Shown: one piece after another, positions 775-60,752 of the stretch
How the letters are laid out: each line of letters opens with the position of its first letter
How positions within the stretch are numbered: position 1 is the first letter of the stretch
Source: Candidatus Methanomethylophilaceae archaeon
GTDB lineage: Archaea > Thermoplasmatota > Thermoplasmata > Methanomassiliicoccales > Methanomethylophilaceae
DNA: 64,000 nucleotides
Direction: 5' to 3'
NCBI GenBank assembly: GCA_944320495.1
Contig: CALUHR010000013.1
Coordinates: forward strand, 448,001 to 512,000
Notes under the pieces: generated by a model
Database searches by the model: none
The model's input: the letters and a program-made list of their open reading frames with translations, nothing else
What the model was told of the DNA's origin: nothing
Position numbers and translations under genes: made by a program

Positions 775-1038
775 TCACAGCGAGATGAGGATCCCGACGA
801 CCGTTATGGCCAGCAGTATGCCGGCGACCATCGCCCAGAACATGTCCCTCTCCTTCAGGAGGCAGGCGAGGCTGACGATAATGCCCGCGAACGGGGAGAG
901 TATGAGTACGAGGATGCCCGCGTGGAGGAGGCCGTCCCCCATGCCGAGGAGCTCCGCGGCGATGCCGGCGACCATCAGGACCATCCCGATCATCACGACC
1001 GCACGGAGCATGAGCGCGGTGGACTTGTTCAGCTCCAT
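775..1038 (-). CDS. small membrane protein, DUF1634-like partner of TauE/SafE (87 aa)
   Basis: MELNKSTALMLRAVV..., three hydrophobic segments. Its ATG overlaps the upstream CGA (CGATG); TGA stop. Confidence 0.75.
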   Translation of the reverse strand: MELNKSTALMLRAVVMIGMVLMVAGIAAELLGMGDGLLHAGILVLILSPFAGIIVSLACLLKERDMFWAMVAGILLAITVVGILISL

Positions 1039-1859
1039 CGGAGCACCCCCGCCGCCTGTAGAAGGACGATCGTCGCCATCACGAACACGACGACGGAGAA
1101 GTACTTCCTGAGATGCCTGGCGTTGATCCTGCGCGTCACCACGGTCCCGGCCAGGGACCCTAGGAACGCACCTATCGCGATCCCGGCGGCGAACTCCAGG
1201 AGGACCTGTCCGCCGAGGAAGTAGGTGATCGCTCCGGAGAAGGCGGTGATGCCGATCATGTAGCTGCTGGTGGCGCTGGCCGTCTTCATCGGCACGTGCA
1301 TGTACAGGTTCATCAGTGGGACCTTGACCATCCCGCCGCCGACGCCCGTCATGGAGGATATCATCCCGGCGACGGTGCAGAGTGCCATCCCACCTCTGAC
1401 GTGTTGGAGCTCGTACGAGACGTCCTCCCCGCTCGCCTCGTCCCTGTAAGAGAAGGCGTACCTGCCCCTTGCGTCCTCGGATGGGTGGACTATCGTCTCG
1501 GGGCTCCTGATCATGCGGTATCCGCTGAAGTAGACGATGATGGCGAAGATCACCATGAGGACCCATTCCTCGAGGTACGTCGCGACTATCGCCCCGATTA
1601 TCGCTCCTGTCGCCGTGGTTATCTCGAGAAGGAGGCCCAGGCGCACGTTCGAGAGGCCCTTGTCCACGTAGACCGTGGACGCTCCCACGGATCCGGCTAT
1701 GATGCCTATGAGGCTGATCGCCACCGCCTCCGTCGGCTCCAGACCCATGAGGAGGAGGACGGGCACGAAGATGATGCCTCCACCGAGGCCGAACAGGGCC
1801 CCGAGTATGCCGGCTCCGAGGCCGATGACCATCAGCAGAACCAGCAGCAGCGGATCCAT
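1038..1859 (-). CDS. sulfite exporter TauE/SafE family protein
   Basis: GLGGGIIFVP and GVGGGMVKVP repeats with many TM helices. Ends at CGA 1040-1038 overlapping the next ATG (standard-code stop at 1029). Confidence 0.9.
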
Positions 1860-1933
1860 GCAACCCGCATCGGTGATCCGTTTCTATACCTTACGCGGAA
1901 ACGCTCTTAATCGCACATCCCGTGACAACGCTC

Positions 1934-3250
1934 ATGGGCGTCTCCGAGTCGCTTGACAGGTTCTTCGAGATAAGCGGCAGGGGATCCACCATCTCCACGG
2001 AGGTCAAGGGCGGCGTCCTGATCTTCCTCTCGATGGTGTACATCATCGCCGTAAACACGGGCATGATGGTGGCCGCCGGGATGGACGAGTCGGCCTGCTA
2101 CACCGCGACCATCGTGATGGCCATCATCGGAACTCTCCTGATGGCGCTGTATGCCAAGTTCCCGGTGGCGCAGGCCCCGCTCATGGGCGTCAACGCGTTC
2201 TTCGCCTACACGATAGCGGGGACCATGGGGTTCTCCTGGCAGGAGGCCCTCGTGGCGGTCCTGATCTCGGGAGTGATATTCTTCGTGATCGCGATCACCG
2301 GCGTGAGGAAGCGCGTGCTGGACCAGATTCCCGCGAGCCTCAGGTTCGGGATCACCGCCGGCATCGGATGCTTCATCGTCTTCATCGGTCTGCAGAACGC
2401 CGGTCTGATAGCTGATTCCACCACCCTCGTGGGTCTCGGGGACTTCTCCGACCCCGCGGTCATCCTGGCGTTCTTCTGCATCATCCTCACCCTGTTCCTC
2501 TACGCCATGAGGGTCCCGGGGGCGGTGTTCTTCGGGATGATCGTCACGGCGGTGATCGGTGTGGCGATAGGCATCATCCCGTTGCCCGACGAGCTCGTCT
2601 CCATGCCATCCATGCCGCCGGTGGGCGACTTTATGGACGGGATATCTTCCAAACTCCTGAGCGTCGACTTCCTCGTGGCGGTGATCTCGCTGGCATTCGT
2701 CCAGTTCTTCGACAGCACCGGCACCCTGATGGCGACCGGGGAGAGGGCGGGGATCCTGGACGAGAAAGGCAACGTGAAGTGCGATAGGGCCCTCAATGCG
2801 GATTCGGCCACGTCCGTGATCAGCGGGCTCGTCGGAGCCACCCCCACCGGGTCCTTCGCGGAGTCCACTGTGGGCATCGAGGCGGGAGCAAGGACCGGCC
2901 TGGCGGCACTGACGGTCGCGTGCCTGTTCGCCGTCGCCCTGTTCGTGGGGCCGGCGTTCTCCGTGATCGGATACAGTTGCACGGTCGGAGCGATGGTCAT
3001 CGTCGGCGCCGCCATGATAACCCAGCTCAAGGGAGTGACATGGGACGACTGGCCGACCGCCGTGGCGGTCATGGCGACGGTCATCATCATGATCCTCACC
3101 TACTCGATCACCGACGGCATAGTGTTCGGCATACTGTTCTACTGCGTGTGCATGCTCGGGGCCCGCAGGTGGAGGGAGGTCAGCCCGATCATCTACGGTC
3201 TCGCGGTCCTGTTCGTGCTGTACCTGGTGTTCGTCGTGGGGAGGCTGTGA
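1934..3250 (+). CDS. NCS2 family (xanthine/uracil/guanine) permease
   Basis: Family motifs AQAPLMGVNAFFAY, FFDSTGT and AESTVGIEAGARTGL; TGA stop. Confidence 0.92.
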   Translation: MGVSESLDRFFEISGRGSTISTEVKGGVLIFLSMVYIIAVNTGMMVAAGMDESACYTATIVMAIIGTLLMALYAKFPVAQAPLMGVNAFFAYTIAGTMGFSWQEALVAVLISGVIFFVIAITGVRKRVLDQIPASLRFGITAGIGCFIVFIGLQNAGLIADSTTLVGLGDFSDPAVILAFFCIILTLFLYAMRVPGAVFFGMIVTAVIGVAIGIIPLPDELVSMPSMPPVGDFMDGISSKLLSVDFLVAVISLAFVQFFDSTGTLMATGERAGILDEKGNVKCDRALNADSATSVISGLVGATPTGSFAESTVGIEAGARTGLAALTVACLFAVALFVGPAFSVIGYSCTVGAMVIVGAAMITQLKGVTWDDWPTAVAVMATVIIMILTYSITDGIVFGILFYCVCMLGARRWREVSPIIYGLAVLFVLYLVFVVGRL

Positions 3251-3290
3251 CATCCGTCACTGTTTTATCCGCAGTGCCGATGGTCCGTGC

Positions 3291-5019: not shown

Positions 5020-6576
5020 TCGGTCCGAGTAGCTCCTCCTCATGGATGATGACGGGACTGGGATGCCCAGAGATTCGAAGATGACCTTCTGGTCATACGT
5101 CGGAGGATTGACGCGGTACTCGTCGTTCACTCTGAACGCTTTGATGTCGGAAGCCGCGGAGATGACGTCGAGATAGTTTATGCGACCGGCCAGTTCCGAC
5201 CCTTCCACCATGCCTATGAGGGCCGATTTCATTATGGATGCGAAGAAGTCCCCCATCATCGAAGCCAATGCCGTCTCGTTCGACGGAAACAGGGACGCCC
5301 CGCCCTGAAGGTCCGTCCTGAAGATGGTCCAGTCCTGCTGATAACGGCCTGATTTCCAGATGATCCCAAGCATCTCCTCGATGGAGTACCTGGAGTTTGA
5401 CACTATGACGGTTGCGCCGAGGCACAGTTCCTCCGACAATATGGCTTCCGCGTTACGTTCGACGTCTATGCCTCCGTCCGGGCCTCTGTTCAGCGTGAAG
5501 AACCGCATCAGATCGTCGAATCCGTAGTCTGCGATGATGCGGTCCTCGATCGATGGGCTCCATCTCATGCGCGATACGGTGTCCTCGAACTGTCTTAGAT
5601 TGGAATAGAACTCGACGGTGCGCTCGTCATGCGCTCTCATGTCAACGACCAGGTACACGTCGCAGCGGTTCAGTCCGAACGTCCTCTCCAGACGGAGAAT
5701 CTTGTACAGGGACCTGTCATAAACGACCGAGTCGTATCTCACGATGTCGCGGTTCTCCAGCAGCAGTTCCCTGGCGATGGGGGACGAGGAACCGACATCC
5801 ACGATGGTACTGTAGTCGGTCCCCAGGTAGTGTTCGATCTCGGACTCCGTGTATTCCCTTTCGCTCATGCAGAACGTGACGTCATTCACACCCATCCGGT
5901 CCAGATCCGCCGAGATGGCCTTCATCGTGCTGCGGTCTGCGCCGGAGTAGTTCGCCATGCGGAAGTAGAATGGCAATCCGGATTCGATGCTCAGTCCGAG
6001 GAACAGGCTCTTCGACGGAAAGTGGTCGAAGGATGCATGGCTGCTCGTGCCGAACAGCTTGTAGATGCTGATGGGCTCCTTGAGGACGTCTATGTCGTAC
6101 ACGATGGCAGATTTGCCCTTCGCAAACCTGGCGAAGAATTCGTGACGGTGGCGGTATACGGTGATCAGCAGGTTCATGTATCCGTGGAGGGACATCGGCG
6201 CAGAGTCCAGGGGCATGTCGAAGAACTCCGGCAGTATCGAGGACCTGATGTTCTGCGTGGACTGCGTCGGGGGACAGCAGCGGATCGCCCTACTGACGCA
6301 GTGGGAGAAGAGGTATTTCGAACAGTCCGTGCCGTACACATCGCACAATGCATCCCAGAGGCCGCAGCGTCTGCAGACGTTGAACATGAGATAGTACTCG
6401 CCCATGTCCTTGCTGTCGACGTCCACCGATTTGGACGATACGAGGTTGCCGTCCTTGTCGCATTTGCCGATGTACTTCCTCTTCTGTCTGGAGCGCTTCT
6501 TCTCAGGGTCCCACTCGGCCGTCACCTCATAGAGGTAGTAGTTGTCGCGAACCTTCTGGACCACGTTATAAGACAT
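5020..6576 (-). CDS. IS1634/IS4-like transposase homolog with a degenerate DDE triad
   Basis: N-terminal [25 protein letters not shown] typical of IS1634-type proteins and a GLPFYFRM segment. Ends at CGA 5022-5020, which clears the rpl15e TATA-like element near 4990 (standard stop at 4981). Confidence 0.7.
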
Positions 6577-8553: not shown

Positions 8554-9717
8554 GTGGAAACCGTGGGCGCGTACTCCGACGGGATGGGGAAGCCGGGTCT
8601 GGCGGCCGTGATGACCCTGTACTTCTTCAGTCTGGGGTTCTGCATAGTGACCCCTGCGATGGCGAAGTTTGCCGAGGCCTTCCCGTCCCAGGAGTACGCG
8701 CTCATAAACTCCCTTCCGACGATCTTCATAGCGGCTGCAGGGATAGCCTTCGGATTCGTGGCCGGCAGAAAGGTCGGATACAGGACGATGGCCGTCGCAG
8801 GTTCAGCTCTGTGCCTGGTCGCCGGCATAGCTCCCGCGTTCATCGACGATTTCGGGCTCATCCTCGTATGCCGCTCCATCGTCGGCATCGGGGTCGGGCT
8901 GCTCATACCGATGGCGAACGCCCTGGTCAACGGCTCCTTCGAGGGGGATGCCAGGGCAAGGTTGCTGTCTGCAGGCAGCCTGATGCTCAACCTGGGCGGC
9001 ATAGTCCTGCAGTCCGTCGGAGGGTTCCTGGCAGACGTCGGATGGCAGACGACGTTCTACGGCTACCTCCTATTCATCGTGGCGCTGGTGATGTCGTTCA
9101 TGATCCCCGATGTCCGCAGCGACGGACCCATGGGGTGGAGGTGCCTGGACCGCCGGATGGCCGTCGTGGTGGCCCTCTTCATGGTTTACGGCATCCTCCA
9201 GTTCTCGGTCATGCAAAACACCTCCGAGCTGTTCGAGCTCCGTGGCGCGGGAGGCGCATCCGCATCAGGCCTGGCACTGTCGGTTTTCACCGCTCTGGGG
9301 TGCGTCGGCGGGATGCTGTATTCACGCATAAGGTCGGTCTCAACCCGTGCGGTGTTTCCCCTGCTGTGGGCGGCAACGGCGGTGGGCGCGCTGATACAGG
9401 CGGTCTCCGAGAGCGGAGCGCTGATGACCGCAGGGCTGGCGGTGTTCGGATTCGGCTTCGGAATGATCATCCCCGCCTTCGTCGATTGGGCAGGGGTCAT
9501 GAGCAAGCCGTCCACCGTCGCATTCGCCACGGCCCTGACGACATCCGGGCTCTACACGGGCAGCTTCCTCTCCCTGGTGTGGAGCGGGGTCGGCGATTCG
9601 CTGTTCGGGGAGCACCTGGTGTCGAATCTGTGGGCGGCGGTCGCTGTCGGTGCACTGCTGGCGGTCGTGTTCCTCCTCTATGACCCCCTGAGGTCCAGCT
9701 CCGATGGGAGGAGCCGA
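8554..9717 (+). CDS. MFS transporter
   Basis: About 12 TM helices and RSIVGIGVG motif. Ends at CGA 9715-9717, 4 nt before the next ATG (standard stop at 9810 overlaps the next gene). Confidence 0.88.
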
Positions 9718-9721
9718 GCGG

Positions 9722-10282
9722 ATGGACGCCGTCGAAGCAGCCGTGCGTTCGGTGCCAGGTCCGAACGTCACGTACGTGGGGTCGTTCGATCTGGCGGAGC
9801 ACCCGGTTAGGATAACGGAGGAGGTCCGCCGTGCCTGCGAAGCCAACTACTGCGGGCACTATGGGAGGAATCGGGCATGTCCTCCTCACGCACCGCCGTG
9901 CCAGACGTGCGCAGCGATGCTCTCGCGTTACATCAAGGTGATATTGATCAGGACGACGTTTGCACGCGACGGACCGTTCGACCTCGAAGGGATGGAGAGG
10001 GCGTCAGAGGCGCACGCGGGCTACTCCTTCGATGTTCGTAGGATGCTCCGGGGCATCGACGGGCTGGAATTCACGATGCTTGGGGCCGGTCCTTGCACCC
10101 ATTGCTCGGGACGCCCCTGTCCGGAGGATGGGTGCAGGTCGCCTCCCGATCGCATGTTCTCGATAGAGGCGTACGGCATCGATCTGACATCGTTCCTCGT
10201 CTCCAACGGCATTGACCGCAGGGGAGGAGACAGGGAGCAGTCGTACTTCTCGATGGTCTTCTACAACCCTCTGGAGCATCGA
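9722..10282 (+). CDS. DUF2284-like Cys-rich metal-binding protein
   Basis: CEANYCGHYGRNRACPP, GAGPCTHC and FSIEAYGIDL motifs; GGAGG RBS. Ends at CGA 10280-10282, just before the convergent stop at 10290. Confidence 0.8.
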
Positions 10283-11263: not shown

Positions 11264-11677
11264 ATGGATACGCGCGTCCGGTATCTGGTTGTGCTCATCG
11301 CGTACGTGGCCATCGTGATAGTCGCTGGCACTGCGGTGACGATCAGGTTCACGGAGCTGGACGCCGTCGATTCGTTCTATTACGTGGTGCAGACCCTGTG
11401 GACGGTCGGCTACGGCGATGTCGTCCCGGCAGGACACGTCGGCAAGGTGATCACGCTCTGGCTGAACATCCTGGGGACGGTGGCCGTCCTCTCCGCGATC
11501 GGAATCGTCAGCGGCATCGTCCTGGACCGGTTCATGGACCGCCAGAGGAAGCTGGAGTCCGAGGCGTCGGAGCGCCGCAGGGAGATGCGCAGGGCCGTCC
11601 TGGCATGGGCCGACCGCAACGGCATAGACCGCTCCGAGATCGAGGGGGTGATTGGCGATGGTCCTAAGGAGCACCGA
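11264..11677 (+). CDS. two-TM potassium channel subunit (KcsA-like)
   Basis: TLWTVGYGDVVP selectivity filter between two TM helices. Ends at CGA 11675-11677 (standard stop at 12085 would overlap the next gene by about 430 nt). Confidence 0.85.
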
Positions 11678-12131
11678 TGCGGAGCTGCTGAGGTGGGTCC
11701 TCATCGTCGCCGTCGTCCTGGGCGCGTTCACCCTCATGTTCTCTCACGTGGAGGGGTGGGACCTCTTCGACTCGTTCTACTTCGTGCTCTGCACGTCCAC
11801 CACCTCCGGCTTCGGGGACGTCGTGGTCTCTCCGGAGAACAGGCTGCTGGCATCCGTCTTCATCATCGTGGCCGCCACCCTGGTCCTGTCCCTGGCCGCC
11901 AACGTGGGGCAGTGGATCATGGACTCGGTGGGCCGCAGGATGGCGGTAAGGAGGTTCAGGGGCGAGGTGGCGGATACGAAGCTCCGGCTGAGGGGCCTGG
12001 GTGCCGACACGTCGGACCTGGAGGCCGAGCTGGATCGCATCATGGAGGCCGGGAGCAGGGCCATGGGGGAGATGAGGGCCGATGAGCTCGATCTCGGTCC
12101 AGAGCTGGAGGGTCTCCGCAGGAGGCGCCGA
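11658..12131 (+). CDS. second two-TM potassium channel subunit
   Basis: STTSGFGDVV filter and GGGGTG RBS. Ends at CGA 12129-12131; under the standard code it reads through into the next gene. Confidence 0.82.
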
Positions 12132-12182: not shown

Positions 12183-13139
12183 ATGTACCGCCACGCCGAC
12201 CTGGGGGAAGCCATAGCACGCTCGGTCAGGGAGTCCTCCGAGGGGCGCGATGTCGCCGTAGCATTCTCTGGCGGCCTGGATTCCGGACTCGTCGCAGGTC
12301 TTGCGGCGAGATATGCGAGGTCCGTGCATCTGTACACGTGCGGCACCGCCAACGCCTACGACGTGGTCGCCGCCGACGAGCTCTCGAAGAGGCTCGGCCT
12401 GCCGTGGACGCATGTGAGGCTCACCACCGGGAACATAGGTCCTCTGATCGTCGAACTGATGTCCGCCACTGGGGTGACCGATCCGTTCACCGTGTCCTAC
12501 GAGCTCCAGCTGTTCAGCGTCTGCAGGGAGTGCTCCGAGGACGTGGTCCTCACCGGGCAGGGTGCGGACGAGTACTTCATGGGATGCGCCAAGTACGTGG
12601 GGAGGACGGCGGAGGCCTACGACTCACTGGTGAGGGCGGGGAAGGACCGTCTCCGCGAGGTGTCGATTCCGTGCGAGCTCGCCATAGCATCCCACTTCTC
12701 GAAGGACCTGCGTTATCCGTACATGGATCCGGAGGTCGTCGAGCAGGCGGAGGCCCTGGACCCGGAGGAGCTCTTGCCGAGGGATATGGATTCGAGGAAG
12801 GCCGTGCTGAAGGACATCGCCCGCGGCCTGGGGTTCGACTGCCTTCTGGACAGGAGGAAGAAGTCCTCCCAGTACGGCTCCGGGACCACCGACCTCATAA
12901 GGGCGGTCGCCAGGGAGAGGGGCATGAGGTACAACGAGTACATCGATTCCCTGCGCGGTGCCGCAACGTCGGGTCTGCCGATGAGCGGACGCGGGTCCGT
13001 GGTGGACGCCAGGGTGGACTCGGTCCTCAAGGCGGAGGCGGAGAGGATCATCCGTGAGGGTGGGATGGACCCGTCGGCGGTCATCGAGGCGGTTTACCGC
13101 AGGATCGTCAGGGACGGGGACCTGAGGTCCGTCAGGTGA
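12183..13139 (+). CDS. asparagine-synthase C-terminal-domain (PP-loop ATPase) protein with a RelB/DinJ-like C-terminal extension
   Basis: AVAFSGGLDS, GQGADEYFMG and RYPYMD motifs; no glutaminase domain; own AT-rich element (CTTTATC) upstream; TGA stop. Confidence 0.8.
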   Translation: MYRHADLGEAIARSVRESSEGRDVAVAFSGGLDSGLVAGLAARYARSVHLYTCGTANAYDVVAADELSKRLGLPWTHVRLTTGNIGPLIVELMSATGVTDPFTVSYELQLFSVCRECSEDVVLTGQGADEYFMGCAKYVGRTAEAYDSLVRAGKDRLREVSIPCELAIASHFSKDLRYPYMDPEVVEQAEALDPEELLPRDMDSRKAVLKDIARGLGFDCLLDRRKKSSQYGSGTTDLIRAVARERGMRYNEYIDSLRGAATSGLPMSGRGSVVDARVDSVLKAEAERIIREGGMDPSAVIEAVYRRIVRDGDLRSVR

Positions 13140-13879: not shown

Positions 13880-14410
13880 ATGAGCGAGCTATCCGACGCA
13901 TTGAAGGAGTGCGGAGCGCTGCAGTTCGGCGAGTTCACCCTCGCCTCCGGCGCCAAGAGCGACTACTACATCAACATCAAGAAGGCCAGCACGGACCCGA
14001 AGGTCCTGGGCCTCATCGCCCGCCTGATGGCGGAGAAGGTCCGCGAGAACGGCATCGAGGCCGACAGGATCGCCGGCGTCGTGCTCGGGGCCGTGCCGCT
14101 GGAGGCCGCGCTGGCCCTGGAGACGGGCCTCCCGTTCGTCATGGTCCGCAAGGAGAAGAAGGACCACGGGACCGGGAAGCAGATCGAGGGCGACCTGAAC
14201 GAGGGCGAGAGCGTCCTGATGGTGGAGGACGTGGTCACCACCGCCGGGTCCTGCATCAAGGGCATCCACGTGCTCCGCGAGGCCGGTGCGGACGTGAAGT
14301 GGGTCCTCTCCGTCATAGATCGCGAGGCCGGAGGCGCCGAGGCCCTGGAGGCCGAGGGAGTGAGGTTCATCCCGCTCGTCAAGGGCTCCGAGCTCCTGGG
14401 TGAGAGATGA
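13880..14410 (+). CDS. pyrE: orotate phosphoribosyltransferase
   Basis: FTLASGAKSDYYINIK, VRKEKKDHGTG and VEDVVTTAGS PRPP-binding motif. Confidence 0.96.
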   Translation: MSELSDALKECGALQFGEFTLASGAKSDYYINIKKASTDPKVLGLIARLMAEKVRENGIEADRIAGVVLGAVPLEAALALETGLPFVMVRKEKKDHGTGKQIEGDLNEGESVLMVEDVVTTAGSCIKGIHVLREAGADVKWVLSVIDREAGGAEALEAEGVRFIPLVKGSELLGER

Positions 14411-19530: not shown

Positions 19531-19531
19531 G

Positions 19532-20401
19532 ATGGATGGGAACACAAGGATGGAGGATCTGGAGCAGCATCTGCTGTTCCACAGGGCGCTCGCCGACGAC
19601 GACGAGTCGCTCAGGAGGATAGGGGGATACATGGACATCCTCTCCCGGGCGGAGTCCGGGGAGAGGCTCCAGGACCCCGTGGACGAGTCGATCAGGGCCG
19701 TCTTCAGCCTGGTGCTGGAGAAGGGCATCGACCCCTGGGAGGTGGACCTCTCGGAGTTCGCCCGCATGTACGAGGCCAAGGTCTCCAGGGACAGCTTCGA
19801 CATGATCGTCGCGGGCAAGCTGCTGCTCATGGCATGGAGAATCCTGCGCATGCAGTCGGAGTCCACTAGGGCCAGGAGCGAGCCGCCGGTCGAGCCCGTC
19901 ATCGAGGAGGCCGACGACAGCTTCTTCTTCGAGGACGAGCCGCTGTACGTGCCCGAGGTCAGCTTCAGGGAGGCCTTCAGGAGGCAGACCGAGAGGCCCG
20001 TCACCGTGTACGAGCTCATCGACGCCTTCGAGGACGCCCGCAGGGACATCGATATCCAGCGCGAGCGCGAGCGCGTCCGCCGCGAGCTCAAGGCCAAGGA
20101 GCCCAAGAGGTTCGACAACAAGGCCCACGACGAGGACGACGAGCGCGACGTCGAGGCCGTGTGGAAGCGGATCGAGAGGCTCGGCACCGGGCAGATCGCC
20201 ATCCGCGACCTCTACACAGCCGACCTCCAGGAGAACCTCACCACCTTCGTGGCGGTGCTCCACCTGGTCAGGGACGGCAGGCTGGCCGTCTGGCAGGACG
20301 AGCTGCCCTACGGCACCATCTATCTGGAGATCAAGACGGACTGGTCCTCAGGGACCCTCGAGGACTCGCCCGGCCAGCTGGTGACCGAGGCGGTGAACCG
20401 A
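19532..20401 (+). CDS. scpA: segregation/condensation protein A (kleisin)
   Basis: IDPWEVDL and RPVTVYELIDAF motifs, C-terminal FVAVLHL winged helix, directly after smc. Ends at CGA 20399-20401, 1 nt before scpB (standard stop at 20761). Confidence 0.9.
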
Positions 20402-20402
20402 T

Positions 20403-47543: not shown

Positions 47544-48364
47544 GAGCGGAGTTCGAGGTGCCGGACATACCGGCGATCAGGTCCGAGGGCCTGACGCCGG
47601 TGGACATGCACTACCACACCAGCTGCTCGGACTCGGACACGGACCCCGTCGCCGCCCTCCGCCTGGCCGAGCGCATGGGCGTGGGGTTCGCGGTCACCGA
47701 CCACAACCTGATCCAGTCGGTGCTGAGGCTGAAGGAGGTACGCTCCTCCGTCCCCGTCGTCCCGGGGATGGAGGTCAGCACCACCGACGGCCCGCACATA
47801 CTGGTCTACTTCCCCACCTCCAGGTCCCTGGAGAGGTTCTGGTACACGCGCATCCGCCCCCGCATCCAGGAGAACCCGTGGCTGGCCCTCAGGGACTGCA
47901 CCACCGAGAGGCTCCTGGACATGTGCGAGATGGAGGACTGCGTCGTCTCCGCCGCCCACCCCTCGGGATACTTCAACACCAACAAGGGCGTCGAGATCTG
48001 CATCCGCAAGGGCATCCTCATGCCGTCGGTGGCAAGGCGTCTCGACGCATACGAGGTGATCTCCGGGGGAATGACCCGCGAGTCCAACGAGAACTCCATA
48101 GCCGCCGCCAAGGAGTACGGGCTGGGGTTCACAGGGGGCACCGACTCCCACGTCCTCAACGGCCTCGGAGGCGTCGTCACCGTGTGCCAGTCGTCCACCG
48201 TGGAGGGGATCCTGGAGGACGTGAGGCACCATCGGGTGGACGTGATCGGACAGGAGAAGAACATCCGCGAGAAGGTCGTCACCGGCTCCGCCTCCGCCAT
48301 GAAGTTCGCCCTCCACGTGCCCTCGACCGTATCGGTGAAGGCTCGCGGGATGGTCCGGAGACGA
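47540..48364 (+). CDS. PHP-domain phosphoesterase
   Basis: DMHYHTSCSD, VTDHN, GMEV, AHP and GGTDSH motifs. Ends at CGA 48362-48364, abutting the convergent TGA (standard stop at 49870). Confidence 0.85.
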
Positions 48365-50170
48365 TCACTGGTCGTCTTCCTGCTCCTGCTCCGCCATCTC
48401 GGCCCTTGTCTGGCGGCGCTTCCTCACGTAAAGGACGAGTATCGCCAGCGCGGCCACCGCTATGATCGCCGCATAGTACCACAGCTCCACCTCGACGGCG
48501 TTGGGGACGATCAGGATTATCAGGAAGTCGATCAGCACGATCAGGAGGTACGTGTTGATGTCCAGGAAGTTCAGGAACCTCTCGTATATGGCGACGGGGT
48601 TCGAGTCGCGCCCCTCCCTGTTGGCGATGCGCTTGGCCCCGCCGATGATGATCTCGTCCAGGAACTTCACGTTGTTGATCATGTAGTACGTGGGGATCGT
48701 CAGGAACAGGAAGTTCATGCCGAGGATCATCAGGACCCATCCGGTCTGATTCCATCCGAAGGACTCCAGCAGCCATTCGCTCAGCGGAGGCGTGAGGAAG
48801 TAGAAGGCGATCTCTATCGCCGCGATGACCAGGATGTTGATGTACGCATGGGTCATGCTGCGGTAGACGGCCTTCTGGGACTTCTTCGAGGACGCGGAGA
48901 GGCGGTCGTAGGTCCTGGACCTGGCGTCGTTGAGCGAGCAGCATGCCGCGTAGATGGGGCGGGGGCACTTGGACACGACCCCGTCCCAGATGCTCCCCGC
49001 ATAGCGCGACACGATCGGGAGGGTTATCATCGAGAGCAGGGCCGCGCCGATGACCGAGGTGTAGAACCCGTCGTCTATGACCCCGTCAGCCAGCGCCTCG
49101 GCGGCGATGATGAACGCGAACTCCCCCATGGCGCAGAGGTTGATCGCCGAAAGGAACCCGTTCCTGCAGGTCTCGTTCCCGATCCAGTACGCCAGGAACC
49201 CGTTGCAGGTCATCAGGACGAAGTAGATGACGAAGAAGATCAGGATGGTGCCGATGTTGTCCACCAGGATGGACGCTGGATAGACCTCCGCACCTATGCT
49301 GATGAAGAACACGGCCATGAACAGGTCCCTCATGGGGCCGATCTTGCTGTTCACGTCCTTGGCCTTCCTGCTGCTGGCCACCATCATGCCCATCAGGAAC
49401 GCTCCGATGGCCATGGACAGGCCGGCGTATGTGGCCAGCAGGGCCATGAGGAACGCCAGTCCGACGGATGCGACCGTGAGGATCTCGTCGGACACGTTGT
49501 CGGAGATCCAGTTGATGATCCTCGGCACGACCCTCAGGCCCACGACGATGCTGATGACCATGAACACGAGGATCTTGACGATCAGGACGATGATCTCGTT
49601 GATGTCCATCCCGCCCATCTCCCCGGCGGAGTAGTTCGCCATCAGCGGCGTGATCATGGAAAGGATGATGACCTGGCCGATGTCCTCCATGATGGCGACG
49701 AGGATGAGCATGTCCACGTGGTCGCGGTCGAGCTTGTTCTGCGTCTTCAGCACGGCGAGCAGCACGGCGGACGAGGATCCGGAGATTATGGCGCCCAGCA
49801 CGAGGGACTGGGTCATGTCGTAGCCGAGGAGCGTCCCGGCCACGAATCCCCCTGTGAGCATGAGGGGTAGCAGGATGACCACCACGAGGATGGCGAAGGA
49901 CCCCTGCTTGCGGATCTTCTTGATGTTGATCTCCAGCCCTATGCAGAACATCAGCAGGACCAGTCCGAAGTCCTTCAGGAAGGAGATGATCTCCTCTTCG
50001 GCGAGGATCGTCCCCTTGTCCTGGAAGAGGAACATGACGTTGACCAGGACGATGCCCGCGATGATGTATCCGATGAGCGGGGGCAGCTTGAACTTGTTGA
50101 AGACGATGGAACAGACCGCGGCGAGCAGCGAGAACAGCGCCAGCGCCGTCAGCATCACCGTCTCTTCCAT
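48365..50170 (-). CDS. cation:proton antiporter (CPA2/KefB-like)
   Basis: PPLIGYIIAG, LLMFCIGLE, SSSAV, MEDIG and GEFAFII motifs. Confidence 0.9.
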   Translation of the reverse strand: MEETVMLTALALFSLLAAVCSIVFNKFKLPPLIGYIIAGIVLVNVMFLFQDKGTILAEEEIISFLKDFGLVLLMFCIGLEINIKKIRKQGSFAILVVVILLPLMLTGGFVAGTLLGYDMTQSLVLGAIISGSSSAVLLAVLKTQNKLDRDHVDMLILVAIMEDIGQVIILSMITPLMANYSAGEMGGMDINEIIVLIVKILVFMVISIVVGLRVVPRIINWISDNVSDEILTVASVGLAFLMALLATYAGLSMAIGAFLMGMMVASSRKAKDVNSKIGPMRDLFMAVFFISIGAEVYPASILVDNIGTILIFFVIYFVLMTCNGFLAYWIGNETCRNGFLSAINLCAMGEFAFIIAAEALADGVIDDGFYTSVIGAALLSMITLPIVSRYAGSIWDGVVSKCPRPIYAACCSLNDARSRTYDRLSASSKKSQKAVYRSMTHAYINILVIAAIEIAFYFLTPPLSEWLLESFGWNQTGWVLMILGMNFLFLTIPTYYMINNVKFLDEIIIGGAKRIANREGRDSNPVAIYERFLNFLDINTYLLIVLIDFLIILIVPNAVEVELWYYAAIIAVAALAILVLYVRKRRQTRAEMAEQEQEDDQ

Positions 50171-50370: not shown

Positions 50371-51483
50371 TCGGCGGCCGAGCATCATCTTCCTTCTGAA
50401 CTCGGCGCTCCTCTTCGCGACCTCGTCCACGTTGTGCCTGTCCACCACCTGAACCTCCGGCAGCCTGCGCGGGTTGGCCGCGAGCATCCTGTCCAGGAGG
50501 TTCCTGTCGGAGAACTCGCACTTCTTCAGGTACGGCCTCTCCCAGTTCGACGCCAGGTCCATCATGGCCTCGATCCCGCGGTCGTAGAACAGCGAGGCGA
50601 ACACGGCGCCGACGGTGGACTCCTTGGACATGATGGCGATGTTGCACCCGCGCACGGCGAAGTCGGTCCCGTTGAACGAGACCGCCGCCCCGCCCGCGTC
50701 TCTCACGAGGTCCAGGCACTGGTAGTCCGTGTCGTCCCCTCCGATGTACATGGTGCAGTCCAGGTCGATGTTGGTCTGCTTCCTGATGTCCAGGAGCTGG
50801 TACGCCTTGCGGTGGGACGTCACAGGCACCGAGGACTCCATGAGGCTCATGGCCGGGAGCTCGGGTATCTGGTTCTGGAGGATGTCGTCCAGGGTCCTGA
50901 TGATCTTGACGTCCCACTCGTCGATCTCCATGGGGACGTTGAGCTCGTACTCCACCTTCGGGATGCGCAGGGACGTCACCGTCTCGCACATCTCGCGCAT
51001 CCTGCGGGCGTCCGCGCGACCGAACTGCATGTGGTCGAGGTCGGTCTGGGAGCAGAACACCTCGCACAGCGGCACGTCGATCCTGTCGGCGACGGTCATC
51101 CATCCGTGATTGTAGATTGAGGTGGACACGAAGGTGGGGAGCATCCGGGATATGAAGCGGAGCGCGTCCTCGGAGCCGGGCATGAACCTGAGCGTCTCCT
51201 CGTACGCCTTCTTCAGGAGATGGTCGGTGGCGCCGTTGGCCTTCAGGAAAGGGATGACCCATTTGGCGGTGTTGCCGGCCGTGGCCTCCTCCCTGCCCAG
51301 CACATAGGCGGTGAGATGGTCGTACCTCCTCACCACGTCGTAGAAGTGGGCGCCGTTGCGGATGAAGCGGGCGCAGACGTCGCGGAGGGGGTCGTTCTGA
51401 AGGACGAAGCCGCAGAGGTTCGTCACGAGGATCCTGTCGGGGAAGAGCCCGAGCTCCTCCGCGGGGTCGTACTCTCCCGGCAT
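50371..51483 (-). CDS. HAD-like protein resembling EhaR-family proteins
   Basis: AGNTAKWVIPFL and MYIGGDDTD...AVSFNGTDFAVR motifs. ATG overlaps the purN CGA; ends at CGA 50373-50371 (standard stop at 50356). Confidence 0.6.
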
Positions 51484-52310
51484 CGCTGGTCCTCCAGCGC
51501 CCTGTCGACCATCTCGGAGAGGTCCACGGGTCCGCGGACGGTTCCGTCCGAGGTCACAGGCCTCTTGTCCTCTATCCTGACCCTGCCGTCGGCGAAGGCC
51601 CTGATGGTCTCGGTTATGAGGGGGAGCTCGCGCTTGGCACCATCCTCCCTGATCCTCTTGAACAGGGGCTCCTCCAGCCCCTCGGATGCCTTGATCTGGT
51701 CGAGGGTGGACGATTCCAGCTTCCTCGCCATCTGCTCCCACAGGGCGTCGTAGTTGCCTCCGCGGATGGGGAACCCGCAGTATGTGATGGCCGCCCCGCG
51801 GTCCCACTCCTTGGTGCACACGTGCATCATGGCGCCCTGTCTCTCCGCGTTCTCGGAGATGAGCTGCCAGATGACCTCCTGCCAGGTGCCTTTTGGTCCG
51901 TCCGGCAGAGCGGGGTGGAGGTTGAGCATGTCGAACTCGTCGCAGGTCTCGTCGTCCATCCAGAGCATGTATCCGGCGAGGATCCCCAGGTCGAACTCGT
52001 ACGGGGAGACGGCCTCGCGGAGCACCTTGCCGTACTCCACGCGCCATGCGGCCTCGTCGGCCTCCCTCAGCTCGGGCATGAACTCCTTCCAGGATGCGGT
52101 TACGAGCGGGATGCCGTAGCCCTCGACCATGTCGAAGAACATCTGCCGCTGTTCGCGCTTGGGGTTGTCGGTCTCCTCGTTGGACCAGTTGCAGAAGACG
52201 AATGCAATCTCGACGTCCAGGTCGCCCGCGAGCTTTCTGTCCATGACAGCCTTCAGGAGGTTGCGGGACCCCGGGCCCCTTCCGGTGGAGAACCAGCCGA
52301 GTCTGAGCAT
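51483..52310 (-). CDS. purN: phosphoribosylglycinamide formyltransferase (archaeal PurN-like)
   Basis: LGWFSTGRG, LAGYML, LNLHPALP and WDRG motifs. Ends at CGA 51485-51483 overlapping the next ATG (standard stop at 51423). Confidence 0.8.
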
Positions 52311-52983: not shown

Positions 52984-53211
52984 ATGCGGATGGTCATGGA
53001 ATCCCCCTGCGTCGCGGTCACCGTCAACGGGAAGGTCATCGAGGTCCCTGAGGGGACGACGCTGGCGGATCTGCTGGGTTCCGAGGGGTACGACCGGTCC
53101 CGCATCGCGGTGGAGGTCGACGGGGACATCTGTCCCCGCGCGGATCTCGGCTCCCGTGTCATCAGAGGCGGTGAGACGGTCGAGGTCGTCTCCTTCGTCG
53201 GAGGCGGATGA
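52984..53211 (+). CDS. thiS: sulfur carrier protein ThiS
   Basis: Ubiquitin-like, ending [10 protein letters not shown]. Confidence 0.92.
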   Translation: MRMVMESPCVAVTVNGKVIEVPEGTTLADLLGSEGYDRSRIAVEVDGDICPRADLGSRVIRGGETVEVVSFVGGG

Positions 53212-53771
53212 TGGGCCGCGGCGTGCGCATAGGGATCGCCGGGCTGGGTGGCATGGGCTCCAACGTGGCCGTTATGCTGGTCCGCTCCGGGTTCCGCGAC
53301 CTCGTGGTGGCGGACTTCGACACGGTGGACGAATCGAACATAGCCAGACAGGCGTATCTGCCGTGCCATCTGGGCATGTCCAAGACGGACGCTCTGGCAT
53401 CCGTCCTGCACGACATCGATCCCGGGGCATCGGTGGAGGTCCACGATACGAGGCTCGACGCCTCCAACGCCGCCGGGATATTCTCCGCATGCGACGTGGT
53501 GTGCGAGGCCCTGGACGACCCGGAGTCGAAGGCGATGCTCGTCGAGACCCTGCTGGAGGCCGGGTTCACGGTGGTCGCATGCTCCGGGATGGCCGGCGAC
53601 GGGGATGCCAACTCCATAGTCACGCGCAGGGCGATGGGGCGTCTCTGGGTCTGCGGCGACGGGGTGTCCGACGTTGCGTCCGAGGGGAGGCTGAACGCCG
53701 CCCGCGTGTCCGTGTGCGCGGGTCACATGGCGCTTGCGGCCATGCATCTGGCACAGGGGGAGGAACCCCGA
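53208..53771 (+). CDS. thiF: ThiS adenylyltransferase ThiF
   Basis: [23 protein letters not shown] and EALD motifs. Ends at CGA 53769-53771, freeing the AGGTGA RBS of thiG (standard stop at 53792). Confidence 0.9.
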
Positions 53772-54584: not shown

Positions 54585-55700
54585 ATGGAGGACATAGGAA
54601 CAGACATCATGGACCGCGTCCTCGCCGCCCGCGAGGCTTACGATCCCTCATCGTACACCGAGTCGGACGTCCGCAGGGCGATGTGCGCCGAGCCGTCCGT
54701 CGAGGGATTCGCAGCGCTCCTGTCGCCGGCCGCGGAGCCTCTCCTCGAGGAGATCGCCGCACGTGCGAGGGAGGTCACCCGCGCGCACTTCGGGAACTCC
54801 GTCTGCATGTTCACCCCGCTGTACGTCTCCAACTACTGCATCAACGGATGCGTCTACTGCGGGTTCCACAAGGGGAACAGGATCGAGCGTCTCAAGCTCG
54901 GTCTGGACGACGTCGCCCGCGAGCTCGACGCCATCGCCGCCACCGGTCTGGAGGACATCCTCCTGCTCACAGGGGAGACCCACTCCGAGGAGGATGTGAG
55001 GTACGTCTGCGACTGTGTCTCCCTCGCCGCCGAGTGCTTCGCCGAGGTGGGCATCGAGGTCTTCCCGATGAACTCGGGAGACTACGCGAGGGTCCAGGCG
55101 GCAGGCGCCGACTACGTCACGGTGTTCCAGGAGACATATGACACCGGGAGGTACGACGAGCTCCATCCGTTCGGTCCCAAGTCCGTGTTCTCGTACAGGT
55201 TCAACGCCCAGGAGAGGGCGCTCATGGGAGGCATGCGCGGGGTGGCCTTCGGCGCCCTGCTGGGTCTGGCCGATTTCAGGAGGGACGCGTTCGCCTGCGG
55301 GCTCCACGCGATGGAGATACAGCGCAGATATCCCGCCGCGGAGATCTCCATGTCGCTCCCGAGGCTGAGGCCGGCCGCTCACATGGACCAGTCCTCCGGC
55401 GTGAGCGAGGCCCAGCTCCTCCAGGTCTCCATGGCGTACCGCCTGTTCCTGCCATATGCGGGGCAGACCATCTCCACCAGGGAGCGCCCCGGGTTCAGGG
55501 ACGGGATCGTCGGGATATCGGCCACCAAGATCTCGGCCGGGGTCAGCGTCGGCATCGGGGAGCACAGCGGGACGGGCCACGGCGAGGGCCAGTTCGTGAT
55601 ATCGGACCCGAGGGGCGTGGACGACGTGGTCTCGGCGCTGAGGTCCAACGGCCTCCAGCCCGTCATGGCCGACTATGTCCGCACGGGGCCCAGGGAATGA
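54585..55700 (+). CDS. thiH: 2-iminoacetate synthase (radical SAM)
   Basis: PLYVSNYCINGCVYCGF, FQETY, ISTRE and SAGVSVGIG motifs. Confidence 0.93.
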   Translation: MEDIGTDIMDRVLAAREAYDPSSYTESDVRRAMCAEPSVEGFAALLSPAAEPLLEEIAARAREVTRAHFGNSVCMFTPLYVSNYCINGCVYCGFHKGNRIERLKLGLDDVARELDAIAATGLEDILLLTGETHSEEDVRYVCDCVSLAAECFAEVGIEVFPMNSGDYARVQAAGADYVTVFQETYDTGRYDELHPFGPKSVFSYRFNAQERALMGGMRGVAFGALLGLADFRRDAFACGLHAMEIQRRYPAAEISMSLPRLRPAAHMDQSSGVSEAQLLQVSMAYRLFLPYAGQTISTRERPGFRDGIVGISATKISAGVSVGIGEHSGTGHGEGQFVISDPRGVDDVVSALRSNGLQPVMADYVRTGPRE

Positions 55701-56278
55701 TCGCCGTCACGTCCCGCTCGCTGTGCGGGGAGCCGTTCCTGACGAGGGTCGCCAGGCTGGCCGAGGCCCGTCCGGAGATGATCATCCTGAGGGAGAAGGA
55801 CCTCACGGAGGGCGAGTACCTGGCACTGGCGGCTGGATGCAAGCGCATCTGCGACCCTCTAGGCGTGCCTCTGGTCGTCAACCACTTCGTGTGGGTGGCC
55901 GGCATGCTGGGGATCAGAAGGATCCACCTGCCGATGCCGGACCTCCGCGAGGAGGACGTGTCGGGGTTCGACCTCGTGGGCGCGTCCGTGCACTCCGTGG
56001 AGGAGGCCAGGGAGGCCGTGTCGCTCGGGGCGGATTATCTCATAGCGGGGCACGTTTTCGGAACCGCCTGCAAGCCTACCGAGCCGAGGGGGCTCGGATT
56101 TCTTCGCGACGTCTGCTCGGCCGTGGACGTCCCCGTGTACGCCATCGGGGGCGTGGGCCCCGACAACTACCGGAGCGTCCTCGAGGCCGGTGCGCACGGC
56201 GCCGCGGTGATGTCGTCGGCCATGACCTGCGACGATCCCGAGGCTCTCGTTGACGCGATGCCCTCTCGCAAAGGTCGA
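55697..56278 (+). CDS. thiE: thiamine-phosphate synthase/TenI family protein
   Basis: ILREKDL, GASVHS, GHVFGTACK and YAIGG motifs. Ends at CGA 56276-56278 (standard stop at 56296). Confidence 0.8.
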
Positions 56279-56302: not shown

Positions 56303-56938
56303 ATGGACGAGGCGACCTTCGACCGCGCCAAGGCATTCATCCGCGACCTCTTCGAGGGCGACAGCGGCGGTCACGACTACTGGCATTCGATTCGCGTCCA
56401 CGACCTCGCCGTCTCCATCTGCGGCAGGGAGGGAGGCGACATGGACGTCGTCCGTCTGGCGGCGCTCCTGCACGATGCGGACGACCGCAAGCTCTTCGGA
56501 CAGGGGAGCCGCAACGCCAGGGGATTCATGGACTCCGAGGGCATACCCTCAGACGTCCAGGACGAGGTCGTGGAGATCATATCGAAGATATCGTTCAAGG
56601 GAGCCGACACCGAGGTGCCCGCATCGCTGGAGGGGAGGATAGTCCAGGACGCCGACAGGCTGGACGCCATAGGTGCCGTCGGCATAGCCAGGGCCTTCGC
56701 CTACGGCGGGAGCAGGGGCCGTCCGATGCACGATCCGGAGGTCCCGCCGTGCGAGGGCATGGGCGAGGCCGCCTACTTCGCCAATCGCGGGACGACGGTC
56801 AACCACTTCCACGAGAAGCTGCTCCTGCTGAAGGACATGATGAACACCCCGACCGCCCGCGCCATGGCGGAGTCCCGCCACCGCTACATGGAGGGCTTCC
56901 TGGAGGAGTTCCTGGACGAGTGGGAGGGCCGCAGGCGA
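56303..56938 (+). CDS. HD-domain protein
   Basis: GHDYWH, LLHDADD, VQDADRLDAIGAVGIAR and HFHEKLL motifs. Ends at CGA 56936-56938 (standard stop at 57235). Confidence 0.9.
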
Positions 56939-57598
56939 TCGCAGGAGCTCGAACCGGTTCTTGGAGAACTTCAGGACGCCGTCGGCCTGCATCCTTCCGA
57001 GCTCGGCCGACAGGGCGCTCCTGTCCACGCCCAGGTGGTCGGCCATCTGCTGCCTGTTCAGCGGTATGGAGAACTCGTTGCTCCCCGCGATCCTGGCCTG
57101 GTCGGACAGATAGGCGCACACCTTCTCGCGGATGCTCCGCTTCGACATCTGCCCCAGCCTCCTGTCGCGCTCCACGGTGCTGCGGGCGAGGGCCTGGACC
57201 AGATTTCTGACGACTCTCGAATGGAACTGGCATGATGACGGGCAGGTCGTCGTCACCCTGGAGATCTCGAAGAACATGATCTCGGACCGATCGCTGGTGA
57301 CGAAGCTCGTGTCCGCCCGCTCGCCCATCGAGCACGCGTACTCTGCGAAGATCACATCGCCCGGTCCGTGAGAGGAGACCAGGGTCCTGTTCCCCCACCA
57401 ATCCTGTTTTATGACGTCGACGCGGCCGTCGAGGACGACACCCAGGCAGTCGACGGGGTCCCCGCTGCGAAGCACGAACTCCCCCTTGGGATACTTCTCC
57501 CTGCGGGCGTTCAGGCATTCGCACATCGCTGTAATCTCATCATCAGACGTCCCCAGGAAGATCCCGGTGTTCCTGAGGATGGGGATTGGGCTTCTCAT
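56939..57598 (-). CDS. Crp/Fnr family transcriptional regulator (HcpR-like)
   Basis: cNMP-binding beta-roll and HTH (IPLNRQQMADHLGVDRSALSAELGRM). Ends at CGA 56941-56939 (standard stop at 56549). Confidence 0.9.
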
Positions 57599-59205: not shown

Positions 59206-59344
59206 GCATCCACCCGACGGGTTCTACGGAATCCGTCGGGAAACATTCGGATACCGCAATTATTCCGCGAAATCCGAACGATTACCAGCGGGATTCCTGC
59301 AAAGTCTGCAAACCTTATTATCCGAAGCCGTCGGTCGGCCATCC

Positions 59345-60151
59345 ATGCGCATAACGATAGTGGGCTGCGGGTCCATCGGTTCCAAGCTGGCCAGCGCCGC
59401 CGATGAGATGCCCGAGGTCAAGAGGATCTACCTCGTCGACATGGAGAGGCATCTCGCCGAGGATCTCGCCGCCAGGCTCAAGAAGGCAATCGTTGTCGAC
59501 AGCGTGGAGGAGGAGCTCTACCACTGCGACCTCGTCATCGAGGCCGCCTCCCAGGCAGCCGCCAGGGACATCGCCCCCCGCGTCGTGTCCCGCGGTGTCG
59601 ACATGATGATAATGTCCGTCGGAGCCCTCGTGGACGACGACTTCCGTATGATGGTCAAGGACAAGGCCAAGAACTCCGAGGCCAAGATCTTCATCCCCTC
59701 CGGTGCGATCTGTGGCACCGACGGCCTGAGGGCGTCCGCCGTGGGTAGGCTCGACGAGGTCGAGCTCATCACCACCAAGGGCCCCAAGAGCCTGGAGGGG
59801 GTCCCGTACATCATCGACCACGGGATCGACGTGGACAAGGTGAAGGAGCCCACGGTCATCTTCTCCGGAACGGCCAGGGACGCGGTCAGGTTCTTCCCCA
59901 GGAACATCAACGTGGCCGCCACCGTCTCGCTCCTCGGAGTCGGGTTCGACAGGACCAAGGTCAAGATCGTCCTCGACCCGGGCAGCCACAGCAACTCCCA
60001 CGAGCTCAGGATCAAGGGCGAGTTCGGGGAGATGACCTGTCACACCTACAACGTGCCGTCCCCGGACAACCCGAAGACGTCCTATCTCGCATCCCTCTCC
60101 GCCATCGCCGCCCTCCACAGGATCGTCGGCAACGAGTGGATCGGGATCTGA
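59345..60151 (+). CDS. nadX: L-aspartate dehydrogenase
   Basis: VGCGSIG, EAASQ, PSGAICGTD, PRNINVAA and NPKTSYLA motifs. Confidence 0.92.
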   Translation: MRITIVGCGSIGSKLASAADEMPEVKRIYLVDMERHLAEDLAARLKKAIVVDSVEEELYHCDLVIEAASQAAARDIAPRVVSRGVDMMIMSVGALVDDDFRMMVKDKAKNSEAKIFIPSGAICGTDGLRASAVGRLDEVELITTKGPKSLEGVPYIIDHGIDVDKVKEPTVIFSGTARDAVRFFPRNINVAATVSLLGVGFDRTKVKIVLDPGSHSNSHELRIKGEFGEMTCHTYNVPSPDNPKTSYLASLSAIAALHRIVGNEWIGI

Positions 60152-60239
60152 TAATCAAACCCTGGCGGGCGCATGCCCGCCGACCTCCGGGATTCCGGAG
60201 GACATTCCATTATCATTACTGTACGCGTTCCGTCTCCGC

Positions 60240-60752
60240 ATGGAAGAGCGTCGGCATCTCGGCATGGAGGACATCCTCGGCCTGCTAAGGTCCAGAGGCA
60301 TAGCATTCGAGGAGGCGCATCACCCTCCGGTGTTCACCATCGAGGAGATGCTGGAGCAGGATCTCCCGCATCCCGAGCTAATCGCCAAGAACCTGTTCCT
60401 GAGGGACGACAAGAAGCGCAGGTACTATCTCGTGGTCGCCAGGGAGGATCAGAGGGTGGACCTGAAGGCCCTCCGCACGGTCATCGGTTCCAGGCCCCTC
60501 AGCATGGCCTCCGAGGAGGACCTGATGTCGCACCTCGGGCTAACGCGCGGGTCCGTCACGCCGTTCGGCATACTCAACGACCCGGACCGTTCGGTGGACG
60601 TGGTGGTCGACTCCAGCTTCCGCGGGTCCCGCATGGGCGTCCATCCCAACGACAACATGTGCACCGTCTGGGTCGGCACGGAGGACCTGGAGTCGCTCAT
60701 CTCGGACGGATGCGCGTCCTTCGCCTACGCGGACCTGCCCACATCCGACCGA
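60240..60752 (+). CDS. YbaK/ProX prolyl-tRNA editing family protein
   Basis: HPPVFT, AKNLFLRD, GSVTPFG and HPNDN motifs. Ends at CGA 60750-60752 (standard stop at 60788). Confidence 0.88.

Follow-up and report, generated by a model that had tools for sequence, protein, structure and literature searches.

Several organelles have turned a sense codon into a stop codon: AGA and AGG in vertebrate mitochondria, UCA in Scenedesmus and UUA in Thraustochytrium (translation tables 2, 22 and 23 of the National Center for Biotechnology Information). The 'stops' at AGR in human mitochondria have been explained by a -1 shift onto UAG. Here, we describe the arginine (Arg) codon CGA in a genome of the archaeal family Methanomethylophilaceae (G000), where it is found at the ends of genes, together with the release factor aRF1 and the tRNA-Arg(UCG) that may compete for it. 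The starting point was a stretch of 64,000 nucleotides (G000:C13:448001-512000, referred to as the window), for which an original prediction had proposed that 24 of 64 complete genes end at an in-frame CGA.

Release at CGA is on record for yeast, in which eRF1/eRF3 release the peptide at this codon in competition with tRNA-Arg (Wada and Ito 2018, PMC7379694). The UGA-biased eRF1 variants L123F, L123R and L123Y improved growth in a selection that was read as termination at CGA (PMC7379694). Codons with both a stop and a sense meaning are described for UAG and pyrrolysine (Pyl) in methanogens (PMC12626013) and for UGA in Blastocrithidia and Condylostoma (PMC4967479). A CGA stop was raised as a possibility for two metagenome-assembled genomes (MAGs) of Njordarchaeales in a preprint (bioRxiv 10.64898/2026.04.02.715157). 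The original prediction knew of no described code with CGA as stop, and our literature search likewise found no description of a published code of this kind, including in Methanomassiliicoccales.

CGA in the window, the genome and the genus

The assembly of G000 has a size of 1.77 Mb on 14 contigs and a G + C content of 64% (about 83% at third codon positions). Its relatives place it in a species-rich genus of Methanomethylophilaceae, one family of the order Methanomassiliicoccales. Genes were called with a codon log-odds score trained on long open reading frames (ORFs), with TAA, TAG, TGA and CGA as the stop set. The stop-likeness of a codon was scored from the 50 codons on either side of it, with CGA and the standard stops set neutral.

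In the window, CGA was present on the expected strand at all 24 proposed positions, always in frame and at the end of a real gene. Our own gene calling reproduced the earlier hand count, since the 64 complete genes end at CGA (24), TGA (38) or TAA (2). The gene list was obtained after taking out 13 antisense shadow ORFs and putting back a DUF2284 gene, which had scored under the threshold and was confirmed by Pfam. The CGA-ended ORF at 17517 (-) and three further ones reported by the gene caller were rejected as shadow ORFs. Once CGA is counted as a stop, the genes tile the window nearly free of overlaps. Under the standard code, the CGA-ended genes obtain tails of 3 to 502 codons that cross neighbouring genes, in agreement with the overlaps, junk tails and false fusion pointed out before. 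Pfam domains finish at or just before the CGA in every window gene with a match. The read-through tails in the window contain no Pfam domains, except for a separate Asn_synthase gene that becomes fused to a K+-channel gene. No real gene of the window contains an internal CGA, which extends to all of them what had been read codon by codon for some. Several of the sites are CGATG junctions, where the final A of the CGA is also the first base of the following start codon, as is also seen at TGATG.

The behaviour of CGA in the whole genome is that of a stop codon, to a degree that chance is far from explaining. Where CGA ends a coding signal, the sequence behind it was non-coding in 593 of 655 cases (0.905), a count that includes second CGAs in tails; a stricter count yielded 176 CGA and 709 TGA stops. 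The corresponding fractions were 0.893 for TGA and 0.856 for TAA, compared to about 0.6 for the rarest and about 0.10 for common sense codons. Adding CGA to the stop set increased the number of compatible non-overlapping genes from 1403 to 1565 and the coding coverage from 79% to 84%. The 1565 genes end at TGA (1118), CGA (382, corresponding to 24%), TAA (49) and TAG (16), distributed across all contigs. The 16 calls with TAG have no counterpart among the real genes of the window. TAG codons of the window with coding signal on both sides were also considered, and all of them lie in antisense shadow frames.

Inside genes, CGA is nearly absent in frame. The coding segments, comprising 457,192 codons, contain 79 in-frame CGAs, most of them at junctions of two genes sharing the same frame. 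A stricter search for internal CGA started from 41 candidates and left one clear case within a domain, located in the aRF1 gene; the other strong hits are junctions of two same-frame genes, with a start codon within a few codons after the CGA. Frequent internal CGA at conserved arginines had been named beforehand as evidence that would speak against a CGA stop. As the sole clear case lies in the release factor gene, this search supports the idea instead. CGA is not depleted off-frame in genes: NCG/A junctions were counted 7,893 times (observed/expected 0.91) and NNC/GA junctions 31,483 times (0.96), yielding about 39,000 off-frame CGAs. Since the depletion is confined to the reading frame, the sensor has to know the frame, which points to the ribosome.

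CGA makes up 5% of the stops in the most codon-adapted tenth of the genes and 36% in the lowest 40%, in line with a stop that is accepted but not favoured. Position -1 of CGA stops is U in 4% of the cases, and position +4 is T in 55-65% and C in 13-16%; 28% of the CGA stops are CGATG junctions. Stops of convergent gene pairs often stand exactly back to back (YGATCR), e.g. at 32192-32197, 37005-37010, 48362-48367 and 56936-56941 of the window. Genome-wide, zero spacing was observed in 28 of 236 convergent pairs, far more often than any other distance. In 27 of these 28 pairs, one or both stops are CGA, and 13 of the 28 form the palindrome CGATCG, which is found at 20% of the CGA stops. Such an arrangement may reflect a favoured CGA-U-C termination context that can be used on both strands. 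A methylation-motif sequencing error at CGATCG was considered and rejected, as 80% of the CGA stops lack the motif and independent assemblies agree.

Comparison with relatives yielded the same picture. Gene ends of G000 were aligned gap-free to the samples of relatives. At CGA stops of G000, the other genomes of the genus have CGA (36) or TGA (16) and in no case another Arg codon. At TGA stops of G000, they have TGA (185) or TAA (3), but never CGA. Outgroups have TGA, TAA or TAG at CGA stops of G000. The survey of the genus covered 12-60 kb from each of 18 genomes (52-65% G + C), including two (G008 and G015) of the three closed genomes seen. In all 18 samples CGA occurs solely at the ends of coding signals, with none or one sense-like case per sample. 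Most of the single cases stem from samples that contain the aRF1 gene; the sample of G003 has one without aRF1. CGA is used as a sense codon inside genes in five other families of the order and in other genera of the same family. Database entries from 43 contigs contain the exact aRF1 protein sequence of G000. Because many independent assemblies agree, an artefact of assembly or base calling is excluded. A shift of frame that reaches a standard stop, the explanation given for human mitochondria, was considered as well and rejected: shifts of -1 and +1 at CGA lead to NCG and GAN, respectively, neither of which is a stop.

Both the genome-wide signal, which is similar to that of TGA, and the orthology with standard stops bear out the proposed role of CGA as a terminator. 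We are highly confident that CGA is a functional stop codon in this genus of Methanomethylophilaceae.

aRF1, the tRNA for CGA and competing explanations

The aRF1 gene is located on G000:C2 and codes for a product of 410 amino acids (aa). Its codon 78 is the only strong in-frame CGA of the genome with coding signal on both sides and within one domain. The codon specifies a conserved Arg, 17 residues past the NIKS motif, and the conserved aRF1 protein continues in the same frame behind it. CGA was observed here in all 27 genus-type aRF1 genes, with the context xCT CGA CTN AAR, compared to CGC, CGT, CGG, AGA or AGG in 32 of 32 aRF1 genes that do not belong to the genus. It is invariably preceded by GCT or TCT, which account for 4% of the Ala and 2% of the Ser codons in G000, respectively. 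With U at -1 and C at +4, the context is the opposite of that at CGA stops. Genome G005 (8% contamination) carries two aRF1 genes, G005:C189 and G005:C255. The genus-type copy has CGA at the Arg78 site, while the second copy, similar to that of another genus, has AAG; G005 is probably a mixed bin.

The original prediction assumed that tRNA-Arg(UCG) had been lost. This did not hold: ARAGORN located the gene at G000:C13:413317-413390, about 35 kb before the window. The gene is present in every closely checked genome of the genus, including the closed genomes G008, G015 and G099. Its conservation extends to A20, C35 and G36, and base changes in the anticodon stem compensate each other. As full-length aRF1 requires that CGA is read as Arg, codon 78 explains why this tRNA has been retained. 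A covariance model built on the cloverleaf structure was used for the tRNA comparison. In outgroups, tRNA-Arg(UCG) features a perfect anticodon stem of 5 bp and a CUUCGGA loop. Subclade A of the genus has a 31-39 mismatch and a short D loop, to which G000 and G018 add U32 and C38. In subclade B, to which the closed genomes G008 and G015 belong, the near-universal U33 is replaced by C33, accompanied by A37, C38 and a mismatch within the stem. The C33 type was observed in G008, G015, G007 and G005 and is very unusual for an elongator tRNA. Judged from its non-canonical anticodon arm, tRNA-Arg(UCG) of the genus is probably a weak decoder.

An altered aRF1 had also been suggested. In an alignment of 48 aRF1 genes, no genus-specific change was found in the NIKS, GTS and YxCxxxF motifs, which match exactly those of sister genera with a sense CGA. 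The diagnostic residues of the genus are limited to A17D and S142C. Residue R123 of G000 is the x of Y-x-C-xxx-F and aligns with yeast L123 and human L126. R123 and M65 (the position of human R68) were rejected as diagnostic residues, the former being order-wide and the latter family-wide. The order-wide Arg123 may be a predisposition, but not the trigger. Around residue 28, in the region of the GTS loop, G000 and its closest relative G018, both with a high share of CGA stops, have GRSTEL; the others examined have GRGTEL or a near variant.

We propose that CGA would be sensed in the ribosomal A site as a terminator that is interchangeable with UGA. Its reader would be an ordinary aRF1 with Arg at the x of Y-x-C-xxx-F, as in the yeast variant L123R, and we regard aRF1 as the probable reader. 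At CGA, aRF1 would beat a retained but poorly decoding tRNA-Arg(UCG). The codon would then have two meanings, namely stop almost everywhere and, at low efficiency, Arg. Full-length aRF1 would be made only when the tRNA outcompetes aRF1 at codon 78, resulting in a negative feedback similar to that of bacterial prfB, but acting through read-through in place of a frameshift. The conserved codon 78 tips the balance slightly towards such an autoregulation of aRF1. The model as a whole, in which aRF1 competes with a weak tRNA at CGA and feeds back on itself, appears reasonably likely to us.

An alternative to aRF1 as the reader is that CGA is starved and nearly unassigned. A scarce or defective tRNA-Arg(UCG) would let the ribosome stall, and the peptide would be freed by rescue (splitting by aPelota/ABCE1 followed by peptidyl-tRNA hydrolysis, or drop-off). 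This would agree with the non-canonical anticodon arm in both subclades and with the unchanged decoding motifs of aRF1, and a slow or costly ending is expected to be avoided by codon-adapted genes, as CGA stops are. However, it leaves the single conserved CGA of the 27 genus-type aRF1 genes without a reason, and Pelota has no peptide-release activity of its own. In addition, the 28% of CGATG junctions suit ordinary termination and re-initiation, and a quarter of the genes relying on rescue seems too costly. We consider rescue at CGA unlikely.

Far less probable is an editing of C to U in the mRNA, which would turn CGA into a normal UGA stop. The free swaps of CGA and TGA at orthologous stops would follow from it, and the unchanged aRF1 motifs would fit, as no change in decoding is needed. 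Yet the roughly 39,000 off-frame CGAs are undepleted, although 7,893 of them would alter an amino acid if edited, and there is thus no general CGA deaminase. The strictly frame-specific depletion makes the general editing route, which the original prediction had listed as an option, unlikely. Furthermore, the about 380 sites share no motif except the preference for T at +4, and editing gives no reason to retain CGA instead of TGA or AGG in aRF1, or a tRNA for CGA. We know of no C-to-U editing of mRNA in archaea.

It is hardly credible that CGA is merely a very rare Arg codon and that the observed ends are assembly errors or genuine C-terminal tails: the cognate tRNA exists and public protein sets hold read-through products such as a ScpA of 409 aa, but the same pattern recurs in 18 bulk-sampled species with separate assemblies, closed genomes among them, the exact G000 aRF1 protein is found on 43 contigs, the tails lack coding signal and domains and overlap neighbours by up to 502 codons, and outgroup orthologs stop at the same codon.

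Several points weigh against CGA as a stop read by aRF1 in competition with a weak tRNA. With the cognate tRNA kept, the 382 stops should leak, yet no significant enrichment of in-frame backup stops was seen behind CGA (Mann-Whitney p = 0.31). An immediate backup stop follows CGA in 6.3% and TGA in 3.3% of the cases, a difference that is not significant. A 4-bp anticodon stem raises the reading of stop codons in Blastocrithidia, so the effect of the altered stem could run the opposite way. Lineages in which CGA means Arg also have R123 and M65, and nothing in aRF1 therefore explains a termination restricted to the genus. The C at +4 of the aRF1 codon is forced by the following Leu codon, which leaves U at -1 as the sole free evidence for a selected context. 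No conserved RNA structure was found by the aRF1 CGA (RNAalifold, 23 genes), the covariation term being -0.26 with one pair changed on both sides. Finally, an accessory membrane-protein gene has an in-frame CGA (G000:C5:178733-178735, +) behind which the homologous sequence continues. Five genomes of the genus have TTC, TCT, TCA or GCG at the aligned position, and two conserved transmembrane helices lie 3' of the CGA. Either truncation of the gene in G000 or a second instance of CGA as Arg would account for this.

CGA-ended genes of the window

The first site (1038..1040, -) ends the gene of a TauE/SafE exporter (1038..1859), in which the TauE domain spans residues 9-262 of 273 aa. This CGA and the start of a DUF1634 gene (775..1038) overlap as CGATG. 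A gene for 514 aa without Pfam match (5020..6564) ends at 5020..5022 (-), with the next standard stop 13 codons further. On the forward strand follow the genes of an MFS transporter (8554..9717; CGA at 9715..9717, +; MFS_1 at residues 24-340 of 387 aa) and of a DUF2284 protein (9704..10282; CGA at 10280..10282, +), which covers positions 8-160 of the 161-position profile with residues 35-186 of 192.

Two small Ion_trans_2 channel genes stand in tandem at 11291-12131 (+), with an overlap of 20 nt and a CGA at both ends. The first (11291..11677) ends at 11675..11677 (+) and would gain 136 codons under the standard code. The second (11658..12131), supported by Pfam, ends at 12129..12131 (+) and would be joined in frame to the Asn_synthase-like gene (12183..13139). 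In a UDG-HAD fusion gene (14407..15747; CGA at 15745..15747, +), Hydrolase_like extends to residue 436 of 446.

The scpA gene (19532..20401), part of an smc-scpA-scpB operon (15967-20927, +), ends at 20399..20401 (+), and scpB starts at 20403. Orthologs support this end: the aligned codon is CGA in G004, G009, G013 and G018, and TGA in G002, G005, G006, G007, G008, G014 and G016 as well as in the outgroup G021. Public protein sets contain ScpA in a read-through form of 409 aa (19532-20761, +) instead of the 289 aa to the CGA, and the tails of close variants vary in length (338-519 aa). Annotation of the genus with the standard code thus misplaces gene ends in a systematic manner.

An ABC ATPase gene (22815..23915) ends at 23913..23915 (+), where its CGA and the start of the following ABC ATPase gene share a CGATG. 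Here, G009 and G018 have CGA and five genomes of the genus TGA, while TGA (G020) and TAG (G023) were found in outgroups. The gene of a Nop5/Nop56-like protein (28630..29730) ends at 28630..28632 (-); the aligned codon is TGA in G009, CGA in G010 and TAA in the outgroup G025. Its start overlaps as CGATG with the end (29730..29732, -) of a class II aldolase gene (29730..30332), in which Aldolase_II spans residues 10-181 of 200. At this end, TGA is present in G018 (about 97% identical DNA), in ten more genomes of the genus and in three outgroups, and CGA in G001 and G010.

A CGATCG is shared by two convergent genes. Its first half (32192..32194, +) ends the gene of an ArsR/MarR-type regulator (31448..32194), with CGA in G001, G003 and G018 and TGA in G004 and G011. 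The second half (32195..32197, -) ends a RibD_C reductase gene (32195..32794; RibD_C at residues 1-192 of 199 aa), with TGA in G006, G011 and G018 and CGA in G001, G003 and G014. A gene for 192 aa (37008..37586) ends at 37008..37010 (-), where G018 also has CGA, and directly abuts the TGA that ends the convergent gene 35607..37007. The gene for 217 aa at 39936..40589 (CGA at 39936..39938, -, also in G018) would gain 296 codons under the standard code. An SLFN_AlbA_2 gene (41045..42217) ends at 41045..41047 (-), with CGA in G001 and G018.

The longest tail, 502 codons, would be added to a PHP_C gene (47540..48364; CGA at 48362..48364, +), and the read-through would cross the convergent gene 48365..50170. 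Gene calling assigned the CGA at 50371..50373 (-) to a gene for 370 aa (50371..51483). Its start forms a CGATG overlap with the end (51483..51485, -) of a Formyl_trans_N gene (51483..52310). A ThiF-family gene (53208..53771) recognised by Pfam ends at 53769..53771 (+), and thiE (55697..56278) at 56276..56278 (+), with TMP-TENI at residues 2-174 of 193. A second shared CGATCG joins an HD-domain gene (56303..56938; CGA at 56936..56938, +, first half) and the gene of a Crp-like regulator (56939..57598; CGA at 56939..56941, -, second half), in which HTH_Crp_2 reaches residue 219 of 219. The last site (60750..60752, +) ends a YbaK/tRNA_edit gene (60264..60752) identified by Pfam; the next gene, a peptidase M24 (60798..61886), shares its frame.

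Comparison with known systems

Taken together, the use of CGA mainly as a stop is best explained as a new, genus-wide variant of the genetic code. If true, sense-to-stop changes would reach beyond the tiny genomes of organelles into a cellular one. It would mean that a codon can change its meaning with its tRNA kept, so that a route through an ambiguous intermediate fits better than codon capture by loss. The aRF1 gene would be the first candidate for release factor autoregulation in archaea. The organisms concerned are gut methanogens of people and animals, and calling their genes with the standard code gives about a quarter of the proteins false C-terminal tails, produces false fusions or suppresses neighbouring genes. 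The family also supplies the PylRS/tRNA pairs used in code engineering, and a release factor of ordinary sequence that ends translation at CGA would be relevant to the recoding of sense codons. The chances appear even that this is the first sense-to-stop change in a free-living organism, combining a CGA of dual meaning, an essentially unaltered aRF1, a deliberately weakened tRNA and prfB-like sensing by read-through.

As in the organelle reassignments, the codon is nearly gone from the interior of genes, including conserved positions, and marks their ends, where orthologs have standard stops; like AGR, CGA belongs to the arginine box. In contrast to the organelles with their dozen genes, the organism is an archaeon that lives freely; a quarter of its about 1,500 genes use the new stop. 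In addition, the cognate tRNA is retained and the codon-reading motifs of aRF1 are unaltered.

The yeast work provides a parallel for the reading of CGA: there, a single CGA at the end of a gene is detectably read as a stop, more so with UGA-biased variants at the x of Y-x-C-xxx-F, a position at which the genus has Arg. However, the yeast reaction described there is a minor side reaction in artificial reporters, whereas it would be the normal end of about 380 genes here. The parallel is also limited by the fact that Arg at x is shared by relatives that read CGA as Arg. The Njordarchaeales MAGs are archaeal as well and lack CGA in recognisable domains. They differ in belonging to another phylum, in a change of CGG to Trp, in that no tRNA-UCG was found and in that no analysis of gene ends is given, the CGA stop being a speculation in the text.

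With UAG/Pyl and the ambiguous UGA, the genus would share that one codon has both a cognate tRNA and recognition by a release factor, with competition and context deciding. tRNA-Arg(UCG) is present, 382 genes end at CGA and one sense use, in aRF1, is obligatory. The direction is opposite, as those stops gained a sense meaning, while CGA is a sense codon that gained a stop meaning and has one clear sense use left. Finally, aRF1 resembles prfB, the gene of RF2 with its in-frame UGA, in carrying early in the gene a codon at which its own product would terminate, in the conservation of this codon throughout the clade (27 of 27 genus-type genes, compared to 0 of 32 outside) and perhaps in a poor termination context. 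Different from prfB, where a +1 frameshift is supported by an upstream, Shine-Dalgarno-like stimulator, the frame is kept in aRF1 and no conserved structure accompanies the codon; judged from the sequence, CGA at codon 78 would instead be passed through read-through by its cognate tRNA.

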